NCBI GenBank assembly: GCA_965197585.1
Contig: OZ240215.1
Span: 1,376,642-1,440,641 of the forward strand
Source: Dehalococcoidia bacterium
GTDB taxonomy: Bacteria > Chloroflexota > Dehalococcoidia > Plut-88900
Direction of reading: 5' to 3'
Length of the DNA stretch: 64,000 nucleotides
The notes under the pieces are model-generated. The model worked only from the letters and a program-made list of their open reading frames with translations, had not been told where the DNA came from and made no database searches. Position numbers and translations under genes: made by a program. Shown here in pieces: positions 827-52,495 of the stretch (its first letter is position 1; every line of letters begins with the position of its first letter).

Positions 827-2258
827 CGGCGAACACGAAGAGCTCCACTCTTTAGTCGAAATTCCCCGGCCGACGTCGCAGCAGGTCAACGACGACCTTC
901 TCTCCCAGACTAACACCTTGGGTCAGCGGTTCAAGACTGCAACCCCCATATTCGGTGTTCTGGTGGCCGTGGGGGTCATCGGCTTCATTATCAAGGCCCT
1001 GGACGGCTTTGACGACCGCAAGGACTGGGGTTACTACGCCGCCATTTTCGCCTTCCTGTTCACCACTTGTCAGAGCGCTCTGCTTGTATCCGCAACCATG
1101 AGGCTGGCTAAGACTCACTGGCGCCGCCCCCTCGCCCGGGTATCCGAGCTCTTCGCCATCGTCGGAGTCTTCAACCTAATTATTTTCCTTCCCCTCCTAT
1201 GGACAATACCCGAGGCCGAAGGCCGCAACAGCATTTGGTTCGAATGGCCTTGGGGCGCTCCCCGGCTCCTTGATGCCTTGGCCATGATTTTCCTGGTCCT
1301 TAACGGCCTTGCCCTTCTTTGGGCTTCCTCCCTTCCTGACTTAGCGCTTTACGGGCGTAGGTACGGAGGCGTTCGTGGCGCTCTTGCCCGGCTCATGTCC
1401 AGGGGTTGGAAAGGCACTCCCCTCCAGTGGACCGTTCTCAAGAGCGGCCAGATTGCCCTCGGCACTTTCTACTTTATATTCCTTATAGGAGTCGTCTTCA
1501 TCATATCTTCCGACTTCTCGATGGCTTTAGTGCCTGGCTGGATCGACGCCATATTCCCCGCTTTCCAGGCCATCACCGGTATCCAGGCGGGTATCGCAAC
1601 CACCATGCTCACCCTTTACCTCGTGCGACGCTTCGGCGGCCACGAGAAGTACATTTACATGGAAGTATTCTGGGCGTTGAGCAAGATCCTGATAGCCTTC
1701 ACCCTGCTCTGGATATATTTCTGGTTCGCCGGATTCATAACTTTCTGGTATGGCCGCAAACCGGTGGAGGAGAACGTCCTCCAGCTACTCATGATCGGGC
1801 CCTACCGCTTTGCTTTCTACTTGGCCGTGTTCCTGAGTTTCGTGGTGCCCTTCCTGATCCTCATGTGGAATTGGGTGCGCAAGACACCTGCGGGCCCGTC
1901 CATAGCCTCGGCGGTCATCATCTGTGGCGTCTTCTTCGATAAGCTGCGGCTGTACGTTGCCTCTTATTCCTTCACCAACGACGAGTTGGCAGCCGCTCTC
2001 CATCATGAGTCGGAATTCGTCAACACGACCTTTCCGGCCACCGGCGCCGATATTCCCCACTTCTTCGTGACTAACTGGCCGGACTATACCGACATTATGG
2101 TTATCCTCGGTGGCTTGGCCATGCCCTTCTTTGTCTATCTGATCGCCACCAAGCTTCTTCCGGTCATTTCCATCTGGGAAACTAAGGAAGGCTACCTATT
2201 GAGTTCGGTTAAGACCATTCTGAAACGCCGGTACCTGGTACTGGCCAAGCCTGATTGA
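816..2258 (+). CDS. NrfD-family polytopic membrane subunit (ActF/ActC-type)
   Basis: 480-aa, strongly hydrophobic multi-TM protein. Its start (GTG 816 / ATG 819) overlaps the stop of the Fe-S subunit gene, and it is a paralog of the next gene. Confidence 0.8.
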   Translation: MMSNGEHEELHSLVEIPRPTSQQVNDDLLSQTNTLGQRFKTATPIFGVLVAVGVIGFIIKALDGFDDRKDWGYYAAIFAFLFTTCQSALLVSATMRLAKTHWRRPLARVSELFAIVGVFNLIIFLPLLWTIPEAEGRNSIWFEWPWGAPRLLDALAMIFLVLNGLALLWASSLPDLALYGRRYGGVRGALARLMSRGWKGTPLQWTVLKSGQIALGTFYFIFLIGVVFIISSDFSMALVPGWIDAIFPAFQAITGIQAGIATTMLTLYLVRRFGGHEKYIYMEVFWALSKILIAFTLLWIYFWFAGFITFWYGRKPVEENVLQLLMIGPYRFAFYLAVFLSFVVPFLILMWNWVRKTPAGPSIASAVIICGVFFDKLRLYVASYSFTNDELAAALHHESEFVNTTFPATGADIPHFFVTNWPDYTDIMVILGGLAMPFFVYLIATKLLPVISIWETKEGYLLSSVKTILKRRYLVLAKPD

Positions 2259-19038: not shown

Positions 19039-19148
19039 TCGGTGACTTTACCAGCACGACTTACCCCATTCAAGACCGTGTATTAATTTGCCAAGCGATG
19101 CCCCTCAACCCCATCCCCTCAAACGTGTACTCTCGATGCCTTTCACTC

Positions 19149-19443
19149 TGTCATCCCGAGGTCCCGCGCTGAAAGTCCGCCGAGGCAGGAGGAATCTCGG
19201 ACTCGCCTCCTCCCGAGGGGAGCCTGTCCGACTAAGGCGGATCATTCCGGCCGCCGAGAACCGGCTATAAGTGCGCCGAGGCGCGAATCCATCCCCAGGG
19301 GCTGAGGGGCCGCTCATCCTGAGCTCCGTCGAAGGGTCGAGCGGGGGACGGCCCACCATGTCAATCCGTCGTGCTTATCTTGACTCCCACCCAACCCTCT
19401 TAACCCCGTCATTCCGAGGCCCCGCGAGGAATCTTGTGTGACG
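19149..19443. repeat. Patch of degenerate GC-rich REP-like palindromic units
   Basis: Related units tgtcatcccgagg...ggaatctcgg (19149-), gctcatcctgagctccgtcgaagggtcgagc (19312-19342) and cgtcattccgaggccccgcgaggaatcttgtgtgacg (19407-19443). Each can form an imperfect hairpin, and no credible ORF is present. Confidence 0.4.
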
Positions 19444-19545
19444 AAGCAGTGATAGAGTTAGGGTCTCGGGGTGCGGCAGGCCGTAGGAATCGTGGTCCTT
19501 CAAGACCGAGCTCTAGCATGGGCCGCCGTACCCTCTCTCATCTAA

Positions 19546-20544
<999 letters not shown>

Positions 20545-20596
20545 GACTTGCCCTCTCACGCCCTTCCTAGCCTTCCTTCCCCTCCCCCTTGGTAAC

Positions 20597-20637
20597 GATA
20601 TATCGGCCATGTTGCTCTGCAACATGGCCGATATATC
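20597..20637. repeat. Perfect 19-bp inverted repeat (hairpin) just downstream of the transposase stop
   Basis: gatatatcggccatgttgc - tct - gcaacatggccgatatatc. No T-tract follows on either strand. Confidence 0.85.
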
Positions 20638-20716
20638 AATAAAACAGGGCGGGTGGGCGGGTACCGATTAAACGGGGTCGGGAGGGGTGTCCCCTTCCAA
20701 ATGTGACACAAACCCC

Positions 20717-20746
20717 TTGACCATACTTGTACACATGTACTATATT
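20717..20746 (+). promoter_or_regulatory. Near-consensus sigma70-like promoter (TTGACC-18-TATATT) driving non-coding element A
   Basis: -35 at 20717-20722 and -10 at 20741-20746. An equivalent promoter sits at the same position in the paralogous element at 51449-51477. Confidence 0.6.
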
Positions 20747-20752
20747 CACCCC

Positions 20753-21340
20753 CGGCTAGCTCGTCACTCACCCTAAACCCAAGGAGGAACCAAAAACCCA
20801 GGGGGAACCCCAGCCCCGGCCCCGAGGACTCAACGTCTAAGCCCATCCCAATGGCCGTCCCGCGGCCTGCGGCTCAAGCAAACGCCGCCATCTCCTCTTC
20901 ACAAGGGCCCCGGCTACCCCTTCCCCCTACTTCCAGGCGATGGAAGGCCCACAGACTATACGCGGCAGGCCCCGTCCAACGACGCCCCTGCCGATTCAAC
21001 GCTTCCCATTACCGGATGCGTTTACCCCGGCCCATTGCGCGCCGGTTTTCCCGGTAGGTCAACCGACCCCCGGTTTAGCAAGGCCCTCGTGTCCTTGTTT
21101 GTCCCGCCGTCCCTGCCATCCGTCTCTACGACCGATGCACCGGGACGCCGGTTCTGAAAGTCCGCCTCAGGCGGCATGTTCCCCGTCAGCGGTCCGGTCA
21201 AGTGCCGCTGCCGGTGGGATCGGCCCCACACAACCCTGACCGCGGCCGACAACGTGTGGGGATAAGCCAGCCCGGCGCCGATGGCCCGGCAACAACCCCC
21301 GGCCTGGATTCTAGTCACGGACCTTCCATCGCCTGCCCCC
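20753..21340 (+). ncRNA. Candidate large structured ncRNA, copy A (unclassified; 3' end uncertain)
   Basis: About 190 nt are conserved with 51484-51680. A hairpin shows compensatory changes, and 20934-20947 is perfectly complementary to 21322-21335. Only Pro/Arg-rich spurious ORFs occur here. Confidence 0.45.
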
Positions 21341-21500
21341 TCCCAAACAAAACCGAGACACCATCACCACATTTCAATAGAACCTGGGAAGCGTAGATCA
21401 TCGCTCCTCATGGAAAGAGGTTCTCCAACTATCGGATATGTACGCACAATTTTGCCCATCCTTGACCCCGCCCCACCCCTGTGCTACAAAGGGGCCGCTT

Positions 21501-51051: not shown

Positions 51052-51322
51052 GATCGTGCACCCCCCGTCGATCAAGTCCCCTTGGCCTGTTGTCCGCCGC
51101 CGGGCTCAGACCAGGCGACCCTACGGCACCCAGAATTGACCGCTTACCGTTGCTTCCTTCCGGACCTGGCGGGGTTCACAGTTTTCTGCCGCGTAGGACC
51201 CAATCTTCAGCGCCCGCCGAACGGGTACAGCGTCCGAAGGTCCAGGACCTCTAGGGGGAATTCAGTCCCGCTTTAGCGGATTGCGGGTTCAGGGCACCGC
51301 TAGCTCCCCACCTAGCACGACC
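51052..51322 (-). ncRNA. ffs: Signal recognition particle RNA, long (Bacillus-type, Alu-domain-containing) form
   Basis: The minus strand reads GGUCGUGCUAGGUGGGGAGCUAGCGGUGCCCUGAACCCGCAAUCCGCU... The domain IV core is CCAGGUCCGGAAGGAAGCAACGG, and the sequence continues ...GAUCGACGGGGGGUGCACGAUC. It is collinear with B. subtilis scRNA (271 nt). The 5' GGUCGUGC pairs with the 3' GCACGAUC. Confidence 0.9.
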
Positions 51323-51329
51323 TGGACAT

Positions 51330-51358
51330 ATGTTATTTGACGCCCATTCCGGTGTCAA
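51330..51358 (-). promoter_or_regulatory. sigma70-like promoter of the SRP RNA gene (TTGACA-17-TAACAT)
   Basis: On the minus strand, -35 TTGACA is at 51358-51353 and -10 TAACAT at 51335-51330. The predicted start, about 7 nt downstream, coincides with the SRP RNA 5' end. Confidence 0.65.
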
Positions 51359-51448
51359 TTAAAAGACGGATATGTGACAGCGCGTGTCTCGGTAGCTGAG
51401 CGCCCCGCCAAAATGATCCCGTTCACATAGAGGGGTGACATATCCCCC

Positions 51449-51477
51449 TTGACTTTATAAGACAGGTGTTCTATTAT
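51449..51477 (+). promoter_or_regulatory. Near-consensus sigma70-like promoter (TTGACT-17-TATTAT) driving non-coding element B
   Basis: -35 at 51449-51454 and -10 at 51472-51477. It is homologous in position to the promoter at 20717-20746. Confidence 0.6.
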
Positions 51478-51483
51478 TGGGCC

Positions 51484-52135
51484 AGTCTAGACCCGACACT
51501 CACCTTAAGGAGGTAACCACAACCCAGGGAAGCCCACCCGGCCCCACCCGAGGACTCAACGTCTAAGCCCATCCCAAAGGGCGGCCCACAAGCCGCCCCA
51601 CGGCTCAAGCAAACGACGCCATCTCCTCATCCCCACCGGGTCCCGTGCACCCTTCCCTGACCCCCAGGCGATGGAAAGACGCCCTGGTTCGCTATCGTTC
51701 CATGTGAACCCCCTCTAAGACGCTTCAGCCTCTTACAGGGAAAATCTCCCTTGGGAGTAACCTGCTCTTTAGAGCGGAATTGCAGTCGGATAGGCCCGGC
51801 GCCGAGGTCCTCTCGGTGCCCCGACTGCTCAATAAAGCCGGGAGCCGGTGGTCCCTGCGCTCCGGGTCGCACCGGCAAACTTGGACACATTACACCTGCA
51901 AGAGGCTCACGCCGGACGCTGGACGAGCCTCCTTGCCGCCCTTATGCGGTGCAGCCAACCCCCGGAGTCGGGCTCGGACCTGCTGGCCCTGTCGGTCCCT
52001 TCCCATGTCCAGCGTATACAGGGCCACAGGCCGCAGCAGCGGCAAAAGCGGGCCGGACGCCCTTGCCCCGGGGCGTCGGAGCACCCGAAGCACATGAACG
52101 GGGGCATCGTCCAGCAAGCGTCTTCCATCGTCAAC
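51484..52135 (+). ncRNA. Candidate large structured ncRNA, copy B (unclassified; 3' end uncertain)
   Basis: Its 5' domain is homologous to 20765-20947. A long-range helix pairs 51669-51682 with 52118-52130. The 1.0-kb gap has no credible ORF. Confidence 0.45.
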
Positions 52136-52495
52136 CCAAAACCCAACAGACAGAACTGAAACCGAACCCCCACAATCGAAGATGCTGCAAGTCCGTCGTA
52201 GGCGGGGAACATCCTCCTCTGGAGGATCCGCCACTGGAGGACTGAAGAAAAGGCCAGTGTGTCACTAATCTGCCGAACGAGTACACTCAATTGAGCCGGA
52301 GTCCCATTTGTGATAACCTAGCGCCCGTCGGGGCTTGGAACCATTGGCCCGGGAAAGCGACGTCAGACAAGCAATACTACGGTTATTTCCTCGCAATTCC
52401 TCCTCCAAGCGGACCTTACCCGACAGGCGAAAGCCAACTACAGCTGAATCCGGCGTTGCGCCAGGTTCAGACTCACATCATGATGGGGTAAGGCA

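Follow-up and report, generated by a model that had tools for sequence, protein, structure and literature searches.

A probable family of non-autonomous mobile elements carrying a large structured RNA gene in Dehalococcoidia

The two copies in the window

The window analysed here is a stretch of 64,000 nucleotides (nt) from a Dehalococcoidia bacterium (contig OZ240215.1, positions 1,376,642 to 1,440,641), and the subject of this study is an intergenic element, without a conserved open reading frame (ORF), that is present there in two copies, A and B (Table 1). Copy A follows an insertion sequence (IS) of the IS110 family, within an island of repeats resembling repetitive extragenic palindromic (REP) sequences. 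Copy B flanks a gene for a PIN/TRAM protein. Loci outside the window are given L numbers.

An initial annotation, made from the letters of the window, had described copy A as a promoter-driven candidate for a large structured RNA and had aligned part of it with copy B. The promoter sequence is present, and the two loci align in successive blocks that begin with GTGACA, some 15 nt before the -35 box, and run through GGCGATGGAA. The 31-mer that they share has only these two matches in the window at up to 3 mismatches (0/100 in shuffles), the blocks CGGCTCAAGCAAACG, CGCCATCTCCTC and CCAGGCGATGGAA occur in both loci, and a hairpin between them retains its pairing while its sequence changes (GGCCG/CGGCC in copy A, GGGCGGC/GCCGCCC in copy B). 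The extent first proposed, 20680-21400, is too short, since a C/A-rich tail and a probable diverged 3' extension reach about 21450. Similarity of copy A to other copies starts at -139 to -127 relative to a 20-mer anchor at 20829, and homology to an element-free ortholog of the site, L111, resumes at 21455, at a native promoter (TTGACC, 21462-21467). The extents of copy B match the limits of its similarity to L007 and L024 (-141..+737). Copy B also has the equivalent of the long-range helix of copy A, which had been overlooked; its interior is longer and unrelated. The GTGTCAC in the tail of copy B is an inverted copy of the GTGACA motif at the left end.

Table 1. Features of copies A and B (window coordinates)
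Copy	Feature	Position	Strand	Basis or remark
A	Whole element	~20700-21450	+	comparison with other copies
A	Left end AAAT|GTGACAC (GTGACAC 20703-20709), then AAACCCC	20700..20716	+	BLAST extents, left-flank table
A	Predicted promoter TTGACC-18-TATATT	20717..20746	+	aligned copies
A	Inferred transcription start	~20753	+	from promoter
A	P0 palindrome GGCTAGC	20754..20765	+	alignments
A	Conserved 5' domain	20779..20952	+	covariance model R1, 182 bits
A	Shine-Dalgarno (SD)-like AAGGAGG	20781-20787	+	
A	P1	20800-20807/20921-20928	+	
A	P1a	20812-20815/20912-20915	+	
A	P2	20818-20822/20905-20909	+	
A	31-mer	20821-20851	+	
A	P3 GAGGA/UCCUC	20824-20828/20893-20897	+	
A	P4	20853-20857/20863-20867	+	
A	Closing helix, 5' strand CAGGCGATGGAAGGCCC	20934..20950	+	
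A	Central domain, type A	20951..21318	+	
A	Nested 22-nt REP hairpin CTGAAAGTCCGCCTCAGGCGGC	21154-21175		inside central domain
A	Closing helix, 3' strand GGACCTTCCATCGCCTG	21319..21335	+	
A	C/A-rich tail, ends TTCAAT	21336..21378	+	family consensus ...CACAA CTSAAT
A	Probable diverged 3' extension, ends GTACGCACAAT (cf. copy B GTACACTCAAT)	21379..21450	+	boundary inferred
B	Whole inserted element, ~877 bp	51414..52291 (51414/5-52290/1)	+	gap against syntenic L001-L004
B	Predicted promoter TTGACT-17-TATTAT	51449..51477	+	
B	Palindrome after the -10 box	51485-51492		
B	5' domain	51505..51683	+	R1, 131 bits
B	AAGGAGG	51507-51513	+	
B	31-mer	51547-51577	+	
B	Closing helix (51667-51682/52119-52133) around type-B central domain	51667..52133	+	
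B	Tail	52134..52291	+	C/A-rich stretch, REP-like insert, 3' extension
B	C/A-rich stretch up to CACAA	52171-52175 (CACAA)		
B	Nested REP-like insert	52176-52241		
B	Conserved 3' extension, CTGAAG to GTACACTCAAT	52259-52265 (GTGTCAC)		includes GTGTCAC

Structure of the predicted RNA

The conserved 5' domain of about 175 nt contains helices P1 to P4, nested in the order P1, P1a, P2 and P3. Inside the invariant P3 (GAGGA/UCCUC) lie the variable hairpin P4 and a pair of C/A-rich loops that hardly vary, CUCAACGUCUAAGCCCAUCCCAA and CGGCUCAAGCGAACGCCGCCA. A plain MAFFT alignment followed by RNAalifold failed on this domain because MAFFT misaligned the variable arms, and a hand-defined structure with a covariance model, R1 (177 positions, 29 pairs), was used instead. 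In the R1 alignment, 91.6% of the cells in paired columns can pair; sliding the 3' partners by 1-3 columns lowers this to 44-57%. Compensatory changes on both sides occur in 16 of the 29 pairs, where the slid controls have 4-7, and the covariation score reaches 0.245 (controls 0.04-0.08); none of 500 shuffles attains the observed values. The P2 helix illustrates the pattern, with the series GGCCC/GGGCC, GGCCC/GGGUC and GACCC/GGGUC passing from GC through GU to AU, and the mosaic copy L026 keeps P1 by means of two G.U pairs. Covariation of this kind in its helices, as is generally sought in a structured RNA, supports the folded 5' domain of the initial annotation.

Downstream of this domain, a closing helix of 11-17 bp with conserved sequence (GGCGAUGGAAG/CUUCCAUCGCC) surrounds a central domain of 350-475 nt and extends into its multiple hairpins by covarying pairs. 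The long-range complement noticed in copy A spans 17 nt and is 94% complementary. It had been taken to close one GC-rich domain of about 375 nt; the closing helix stands, while the interior proves to be one of at least eight non-homologous central types, which are unrelated to each other by BLAST. Type A (85-92% identity) is found in copy A, L006, L010, L011, L012, L016, L017 and L021, with the nested REP hairpin of copy A missing in L012 and L021. Type B is common to copy B, L007, L015, L019, L022, L023 and L068. The helix at the base of the central domain covaries between types, being GUCC/GGAC in types A, E, F and H and ACGC/GCGU in types B, C, D and G, and the next helix is GACUA/UAGUC or GACUC/GAGUC as opposed to CUGG/CCAG.

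For type B (6 sequences, 75-91% identical), RNAalifold gives a structure of 117 pairs, 94.9% paired compared with 34-47% in slid controls, and 8 compensated pairs compared with 0-5, together with numerous changes to G.U on one side. Variation is lower in columns predicted to pair than in the unpaired ones, both for type A (11% against 32%, p=3e-6) and for type B (27% against 52%, p=2.5e-7), a measure biased by the preference of the structure predictor for conserved pairs. This sparing of helices by substitutions supports a folded central domain, as does the covariation within the six type-B sequences, which is weaker than that of the 5' domain. An invertible segment between the closing-helix repeats was considered and rejected: there were no minus-strand matches, and no type is the reverse complement of another.

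Promoter, transcribed strand and coding capacity

The left end of the element lies about 20 nt before the -35 box and usually reads ...CCCAAA(A/T)|GTGACACGAACCCC, while one subfamily, which includes copy B, starts with TGATCCCGTTCACATAGAGGGGTGACAT instead. The promoter hexamers are near-invariant over the aligned copies and the spacer between them is freely variable, which is the pattern expected of a promoter under selection. Each element is predicted to carry its own sigma-70-type promoter inside this left end. Directly after the -10 box lie the P0 palindromes, which differ among copies but are all perfect and in the same place: GGCTAGC, GATTGGCCAATC, GGCTGGCCAGCC, GTCTAGAC and GTTCGAAC, with the cores GCTAGC, TGGCCA, TCTAGA and TTCGAA. 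Pairs 5-16, 6-15 and 7-14 of P0 covary. Being loop-less, these palindromes look more like a DNA-level site (an operator or crossover site) than like an RNA hairpin. A C/A-rich leader follows, and then the invariant AAGGAGG without a start codon.

The closing helix is followed by a C/A-rich, G-poor tail that ends ...CACAA CTSAAT. In several copies, copy B among them, about 50 nt more are conserved (...GGTGTGTCACTAATCTRCCGAACGAGTACAC...), with an inverted copy of the left-end GTGACAC. No intrinsic terminator was found after copies A and B; the tail resembles a Rho-utilisation site and may end the transcript. The sense strand as a whole is C-rich and G-poor (about 40% C and 26% G over 20750-21350 and in all copies), with unpaired regions made up almost only of C and A, a composition that is unusual for a structured RNA and typical of Rho-binding sites. 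The transcript would then consist of a palindromic start, the AAGGAGG, the long stem P1-P1a-P2-P3, the closing helix with the central domain, and the tail.

The copies fold better than dinucleotide shuffles of themselves (z=-4.8 for copy A and z=-9.1 for copy B), and plus-strand folding-energy z-scores of the copies range from -3.2 to -6.4. Raw minimum free energies are misleading for the choice of strand, since the G-rich minus strand is always lower, by about 48 kcal/mol. The z-scores modestly favour the plus strand, and its assignment rests mainly on the conserved, predicted promoter.

Seven ORFs inside copies had no match in Pfam, and indels between copies are not multiples of three and break every frame, in agreement with the absence of a conserved ORF noted at first. 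A small ORF after AAGGAGG was rejected, since indels break its frame and none of the copies has an ATG, GTG or TTG suitably spaced from the AAGGAGG. Minus-strand ORFs containing 'MGLDVESSG' were rejected too; they have only the 31-mer in common. Rfam 15, the search of which the initial annotation had called for, has no family that matches copy A or B. A scan of the whole window at gathering thresholds returned only signal recognition particle (SRP) RNA and tRNA, and scans at E<=10 gave only chance matches for the two copies (mir-4433 at 17.9 bits, outside the RNA, and a Flavi repeat at 21.6 bits). Five metagenomic members likewise had no consistent Rfam 15 match, which brings the family members checked to seven.

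Some of these features would suit a repeat acting at the DNA level, REPIN- or PATE-like and of IS200/IS605 or rolling-circle (IS91/Helitron-like) type, in which the promoter and the RNA fold are by-products. The loop-less P0 palindromes suit DNA better than RNA, and the subterminal pair GTGACAC...GTGTCAC, a right-end hairpin (CGGU/ACCG), the negative z-scores of the minus strand too, the recurrent left-flank CCCAAA(A/T), a junction ambiguity of at most 3 bp without terminal inverted repeats, and the location of the elements in REP-rich islands all fit. Nevertheless, conserved hexamers with a variable spacer indicate selection for transcription, and P1, P2 and P4 have G.U intermediates on the plus strand. 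Known REPINs and PATEs are much smaller and have no 175-nt covarying domain with invariant loops, and no TnpA, RAYT or TnpB gene lies near any copy. A purely DNA-level repeat is quite unlikely.

Family and distribution

Homologs are found beyond the window, where the initial annotation had proposed to look for them, and the family now has 31 members: the two window copies, 22 from four metagenome-assembled genomes (MAGs), five from assembly LXNJ01, L110 and L112. The 20-mer CTCAACGTCTAAGCCCATCC, scanned across one genome per species, had 22 matches, all in four long-read Dehalococcoidia MAGs with 5, 9, 7 and 1 copies, so that one to nine copies per genome were found. A metagenome scan with an anchor that avoids the 31-mer, CGCCATCTCCTC N30-60 GCGATGGAA, gave 83 loci; nhmmer retained five, every one from LXNJ01, and removed the remaining 78 as chance matches. 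In the LXNJ01 members the 31-mer itself varies, for example to ACGCCCAAGCCC. Samples with such organisms include those behind OZ244800.1, CBDFLQ01, CBDCTF01 and OY760104.1 and samples of the ERZ26167216 type.

A search with R1 recovered 29 copies at 107-190 bits and, in the window, no fragments besides copies A and B. It later recovered the element in L110 and a divergent member in L112, on another Dehalococcoidia chromosome of 3.0 Mb. In L112 (~940-1790, minus strand) the P3-enclosed core of about 75 nt, GAGGACUCAACG...CCAUCUCCUC, is tandemly duplicated, with an additional hairpin in the second unit at the place where L025 has an insertion. BLAST of phage and plasmid collections gave no match to the element, and the 20-mer is not present in the viral contigs searched, where three matches to a two-block pattern were negative with R1. 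Literature searches found no description of a Dehalococcoidia RNA or repeat of this kind. The family, a putative structured-RNA gene carried by a non-autonomous mobile element, is previously undescribed.

Insertion polymorphism and junctions

The copy-B locus was fetched from four relatives (L001-L004) through the flanking PIN/TRAM protein, with 95, 89, 82 and 73% amino acid (aa) identity. All four have the same gene order of amidohydrolase, SRP RNA, PIN/TRAM and IspD, and an intergenic region of about 590 nt where the window has 1470 nt. The difference is a clean gap: the relatives read ...CCCCCAAAATTGAGCCGG..., and the window reads ...CCGCCAAAA, the element (TGATCCCG...GTACACTCAA) and TTGAGCCGG.... 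The register of the junction is ambiguous by AAT, which corresponds to a duplication of 0 to 3 bp. At site A, the ortholog L111 (OY760104.1, 86% aa identity) has an intergenic region of 380 nt without element, REPs or IS, while the closest relative, L110 (97% aa identity), has the element with an approximately 80% identical 5' domain and a different central type. With filled and empty sites and many genomic contexts, the element is to be regarded, as far as sequence comparison goes, as an insertion and not as a fixed gene. Much of the initial description of a candidate large structured RNA is retained, namely the promoter, the lack of an ORF, a length of about 600-750 nt, conserved folding and absence from Rfam 15; it is not confined to a single locus, however, and is insertion-polymorphic.

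This bears on the view, taken in the initial annotation, of a trans-acting cellular non-coding RNA family, an OLE/ROOL-like ribonucleoprotein scaffold, or a sponge of some factor with affinity for C/A-rich or SD-like sequence, that would have multiplied by duplication and for which mobility would be incidental. The size, promoter, covariation and lack of an Rfam match agree with such an RNA, as do the single-stranded loops, invariant as in protein- or ligand-binding RNAs, and the invariant SD-like AGGAG, for which CUCCU in the 3' strand of P3 is an alternative pairing partner. Yet a relative with 95% aa identity in the flanking gene is without copy B, L110 has a different variant at site A despite a 97% identical flanking protein, the central domain, which makes up two thirds of the RNA, is exchanged as a whole from copy to copy, and copy number ranges from 1 to 9 or more between genomes. 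These observations fit a selfish element better than a housekeeping RNA, and a cellular role of this kind is rather unlikely.

Copies also recombine with one another. On CBDCTF010000007.1, L022 and L023 share a block of 685 nt (-133 to +551) at 100% identity and differ in their C/A-rich tails and flanks, which indicates a very recent gene conversion or duplication that spared the tail. Mosaics are represented by L026, by L007 and L024, whose 5' domains are 96% identical and whose central types differ, and by L008 and L016, which precede orthologous genes and have different central types.

The genes downstream of 24 copies are unrelated in function, as judged by eye from ORF translations, and include LutA-like, enoyl-CoA hydratase, Def+SecD, agmatinase, UvrA, PIN/TRAM and CoA-binding proteins. 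The element is co-oriented with the next gene in 16 of 21 copies (one-sided binomial p ~0.013), and that gene starts 50-300 nt past the right end of the element. Often only 0-11 nt separate the right end of the element from the -35 box of the downstream gene's own promoter that follows it, as in copy B (52289-52320), copy A (21450-21490), L008, L016, L024 and L010. In copy B the junction is AAT|TGAGCC-17-TAACCT, and this promoter is kept in the empty sites of the relatives; in L008 it is CAAT|TTGTAC-18-TATAAT, in L016 AT|TGTAAG...TATAAT, and in L024 and L010 the distance to the -35 box is at most 5 nt. This small sample hints at targeting of promoter-upstream DNA. On the other side of copy B, the SRP RNA (bacterial large, 187 bits) occupies 51054-51320 on the minus strand with TTGACA-17-TAACAT just upstream on the same strand (51330-51358), and copy B was inserted about 55 nt beyond this promoter, in a divergent promoter region.

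The arrangement of the junctions suggests another possibility, a mobile promoter or leader cassette that acts in cis by placing a strong outward promoter beside host genes. In that case the folded RNA would have the role of a processing module, an insulator or a stable 5' leader, with the tail tuning Rho-dependent read-through to the next gene. The predominant co-orientation, the short distance to the next gene, the right junctions abutting native -35 boxes or lying within about 11 nt of them, and the lack of an intrinsic terminator after the element are what such a cassette would show, and 'putative mobile promoters' are a documented concept (PMC3575422). On the other hand, a promoter needs neither 600 nt of conserved structure nor loops that are invariant over 23-31 nt, the downstream genes retain their own promoters, and five of the 21 copies face a convergent gene. 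In addition, the duplicated core module of L112 points to a function of the RNA itself. A cassette with effects only in cis is, on this evidence, unlikely.

Comparison with known systems

The element falls outside the known classes with which it was compared: Rfam families, bridge RNA, omega-RNA, group II intron, MITE (miniature inverted-repeat transposable element), retron and riboswitch. The omega-RNAs of IscB (HEARO, from IS200/IS605 elements, including PATEs) resemble it in having a large structured RNA inside a multi-copy mobile element with ORF-free copies, in a copy number that varies between genomes, and in a short conserved flank motif without terminal inverted repeats or a clear duplication. 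They differ in that the present element matches neither the HEARO nor the IS605-orfB family of Rfam, has no identified guide segment and carries a predicted internal promoter at its left end. No IscB, TnpB or TnpA lies next to any of the 24 copies examined. Upstream ORFs of about 390-440 aa, present at several copies, were considered as a partner gene and rejected; judged by eye, they are metabolic enzymes or unrelated IS transposases and not TnpB. Those of 386-438 aa upstream of L014-L019, for example, are an FAD oxidoreductase, an amidohydrolase and an IS481-type transposase.

OLE, GOLLD and ROOL RNAs are alike in size class (about 600-800 nt), in having many hairpins and in lacking an ORF, and GOLLD and ROOL are associated with mobile DNA. 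Unlike these RNAs, the present one has no Rfam match, is multi-copy within genomes and insertion-polymorphic, and conserves only about 175 nt and one helix, the rest being swapped among at least eight types. The single architecture of OLE/GOLLD/ROOL type that had been suggested for copy A is, therefore, not borne out by a family with so many central types, several copies per genome and an empty copy-B site in four relatives; the resemblance is one of size only.

IS110 bridge RNAs and IS1111 seekRNAs are likewise promoter-driven RNAs of about 170-180 nt at the left end of an element, in which a 5' hairpin precedes a stem that bears a large internal loop. In contrast to a bridge RNA, the present element contains no recombinase gene, its loops are invariant and do not match the flanks, and it has no similarity to the bridge region of the resident IS110. 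A bridge-like guide was sought in CGGCUCAA, whose complement is present at copy B's right junction but absent from all 29 other loci searched; the pair CGGCUCAA/TTGAGCCG, unique to copy B, was treated as chance and set aside.

No Intron_gpII or group-II-D1D4 match appeared at E<=10, and the element is intergenic, with its own predicted promoter in the left end. A retron would have flanking inverted repeats, which exist here as the closing helix, but no gene resembling a reverse transcriptase was seen by eye among the flanking ORFs. A riboswitch or leader is not suggested by the downstream genes, which form no consistent family (by eye from translations). Mobile promoters, MITEs and REP-type repeats share with the element an intergenic, non-coding, promoter-bearing homologous sequence that is present in multiple copies upstream of unrelated genes, and REP-rich islands. 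MITEs and REPs differ in being five to ten times shorter and in having no covarying RNA domain, and the element has no terminal inverted repeat and, at its single empty site, a junction ambiguity of at most 3 bp (AAT).

A further comparison is with the ssr9 small RNA module of ISPpu9, an IS110-family element of Pseudomonas putida. This module is selfish and is found alone at several loci, with a transposase thought to be encoded elsewhere (PMC12288879). The likeness lies in REP-rich regions and in an IS110 adjoining one copy. The ssr9 module, however, shares end boxes with its IS and sits directly behind the transposase in most copies, whereas here the IS110 is independent and has different ends, and the RNA exceeds ssr9 several-fold in size and has a central domain that varies.

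Proposed nature of the element

On balance, copies A and B are best explained as members of a family of non-autonomous, apparently mobile elements of about 0.7-0.9 kb whose sole cargo is the gene of a large structured RNA. That the element is mobile and non-autonomous is probable, and with equal confidence it can be expected to be transcribed into a folded RNA. A part for the RNA itself in mobilisation is conceivable but doubtful.

In such an element the RNA would be the functional product, and the P3-enclosed core of about 75 nt could be the platform to which a protein encoded elsewhere binds. The element would be copied to new sites, often just upstream of the -35 box of a co-oriented gene, by an enzyme supplied in trans. 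Its propagation would be analogous to that of ORF-less HEARO/omega-RNA elements or of the ssr9 module on ISPpu9. It is tempting to go further and picture a selfish element made of RNA only, in which a transcript of about 650 nt recruits an enzyme, of the host or encoded in trans, through the invariant 75-nt core and directs or catalyses its own copying into A/T-rich sites upstream of promoters. Such an element would open a class of its own among RNA-dependent mobile elements, apart from group II introns, omega-RNA and bridge-RNA systems, with the exchangeable central domain as a modular payload; this is an improbable extension of the explanation preferred here.

Several observations weigh against that preferred explanation. 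Firstly, regarding structure, the R1 alignment was itself fitted to the structure, P3 shows zero variation, and the 5' domain shows a weak excess of G.U (27) over A.C (16). The sequences used to predict the central-domain structures also served to test them, and the eight type-A copies are too similar for such a test, 95 of 120 pairs never varying and one being compensated. Secondly, regarding transcription, the strand and the ends of the transcript are taken from the predicted promoter, and in most copies the minus strand, too, folds better than its shuffles do (mean z -2.8; plus strand -4.4), which makes a single-stranded or cruciform DNA structure conceivable. Thirdly, regarding mobility, a clean empty site comes from a single locus, copy B. 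Terminal inverted repeats were not found at the copies beyond a 7-nt subterminal GTGACAC/GTGTCAC pair, nor was a firm target duplication, and no transposase or nuclease recurs near the copies that might be the partner enzyme. Finally, the distribution is narrow. Since the family is known from about 6-7 genomes of one lineage, much of its conservation could reflect recent spread and not selection.

If expressed, the RNA would represent a new class of large bacterial structured RNA outside Rfam 15, in uncultured and environmentally important Dehalococcoidia, and its carrier would be an unusual piece of mobile DNA whose entire content is a promoter and an RNA gene. HEARO RNAs looked similar before they were recognised as the guide RNAs of IscB, and bridge RNAs were hidden in the ends of IS110 elements. 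In the same way, an unrecognised partnership of RNA and protein could lie behind an element that has no ORF and combines an invariant RNA core with an exchangeable module of 400 nt. With a strong promoter beside host genes and recombination between copies, the element may also shape gene expression and genome rearrangement in these organisms. Compared with the initial annotation, the finding may be of greater interest as a mobile modular family and of less interest for its narrow distribution and possible recent spread.

The neighbouring IS110 element and REP-like repeats

The IS110-family element near copy A is complete, with a length of about 1.1 kb (19435-20540) and a transposase gene at 19597-20544 (domains DEDD_Tnp_IS110 and Transposase_20). 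It is bounded by CT cores at 19433-19434 and 20541-20542 and interrupts a REP-like sequence, GTCATTCCGAGG..CGAGGAAT|CT|AGGACTTG. At the left end of the IS (19458-19608), Rfam sX15 was hit in antisense with E=2.5e-5 and 39 bits, which falls short of the 55-bit gathering score, and we take this region to be the bridge RNA region of the IS itself. A segment of the RNA, AGGAAUC..GUCCU, matches the target flanks.

The IS110 ends 150 nt before copy A, and its proximity raises the question of whether the element is a non-autonomous IS110 derivative with a bridge or seek RNA as its 5' domain. Site A has an IS110 150-215 nt upstream of the element in L110 as well as in the window, and the topology of the 5' domain, a 5' hairpin and then a stem with a large conserved internal loop, recalls that of bridge RNAs (PMC11208160). 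There is also weak similarity of the ends (GTGACACGAAC with the IS left end GTGTGACGAAG, and CACAACTG with the IS right end CACAGTTG), the 9-mer TCTAAGCCC is common to both, and CGGCUCAA of the 3' loop is complementary to TTGAGCCG in the right flank of copy B. That flank match, however, occurs at copy B only, and the IS has CT-flanked ends of its own. The element RNA does not match sX15 as the IS bridge-RNA region does. A tblastn search with the window transposase found no match within 2.5-3 kb of the 22 other copies. Furthermore, L018 carries the REP target of the IS110 uninterrupted, 150 nt upstream of its own copy of the element, and the IS110 of L110 is a different one (75-85% nt identity) in another REP of the same island. 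Derivation from IS110 is thus largely refuted and can be given very little weight. The IS110 is an independent insertion and not part of the element, and it lies close to copy A because its target REPs and the RNA elements both sit in REP-rich islands.

At least five REP-like classes occur in these islands: GTCATTCCGAGG..CGAGGAATC, CTCATCCTGAGC..GTCGAAGGGTCGAGCGGGGG, AAAGTCCGCC-loop-GGCGG, CCCCTCCCCCGTAGGGGCGACCGGCCGGTCGCCC and TCCCCTCTCCC..GGGAGAGGGCTAGGGTGAGGGTGA. They are found at 19100-19434, 20541-20690, 21154-21175 and 52176-52241 and in the flanks of L005-L026, with some of them nested in elements. A separate repeat family is represented at 20597-20637 by a perfect 19-bp inverted repeat with a 3-nt loop (GATATATCGGCCATGTTGC / GCAACATGGCCGATATATC), on which the chance match to mir-4433 falls. 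L018 has this hairpin too, upstream of its element, and the sequence that immediately follows the hairpin is found again near L006, L015 and L009.

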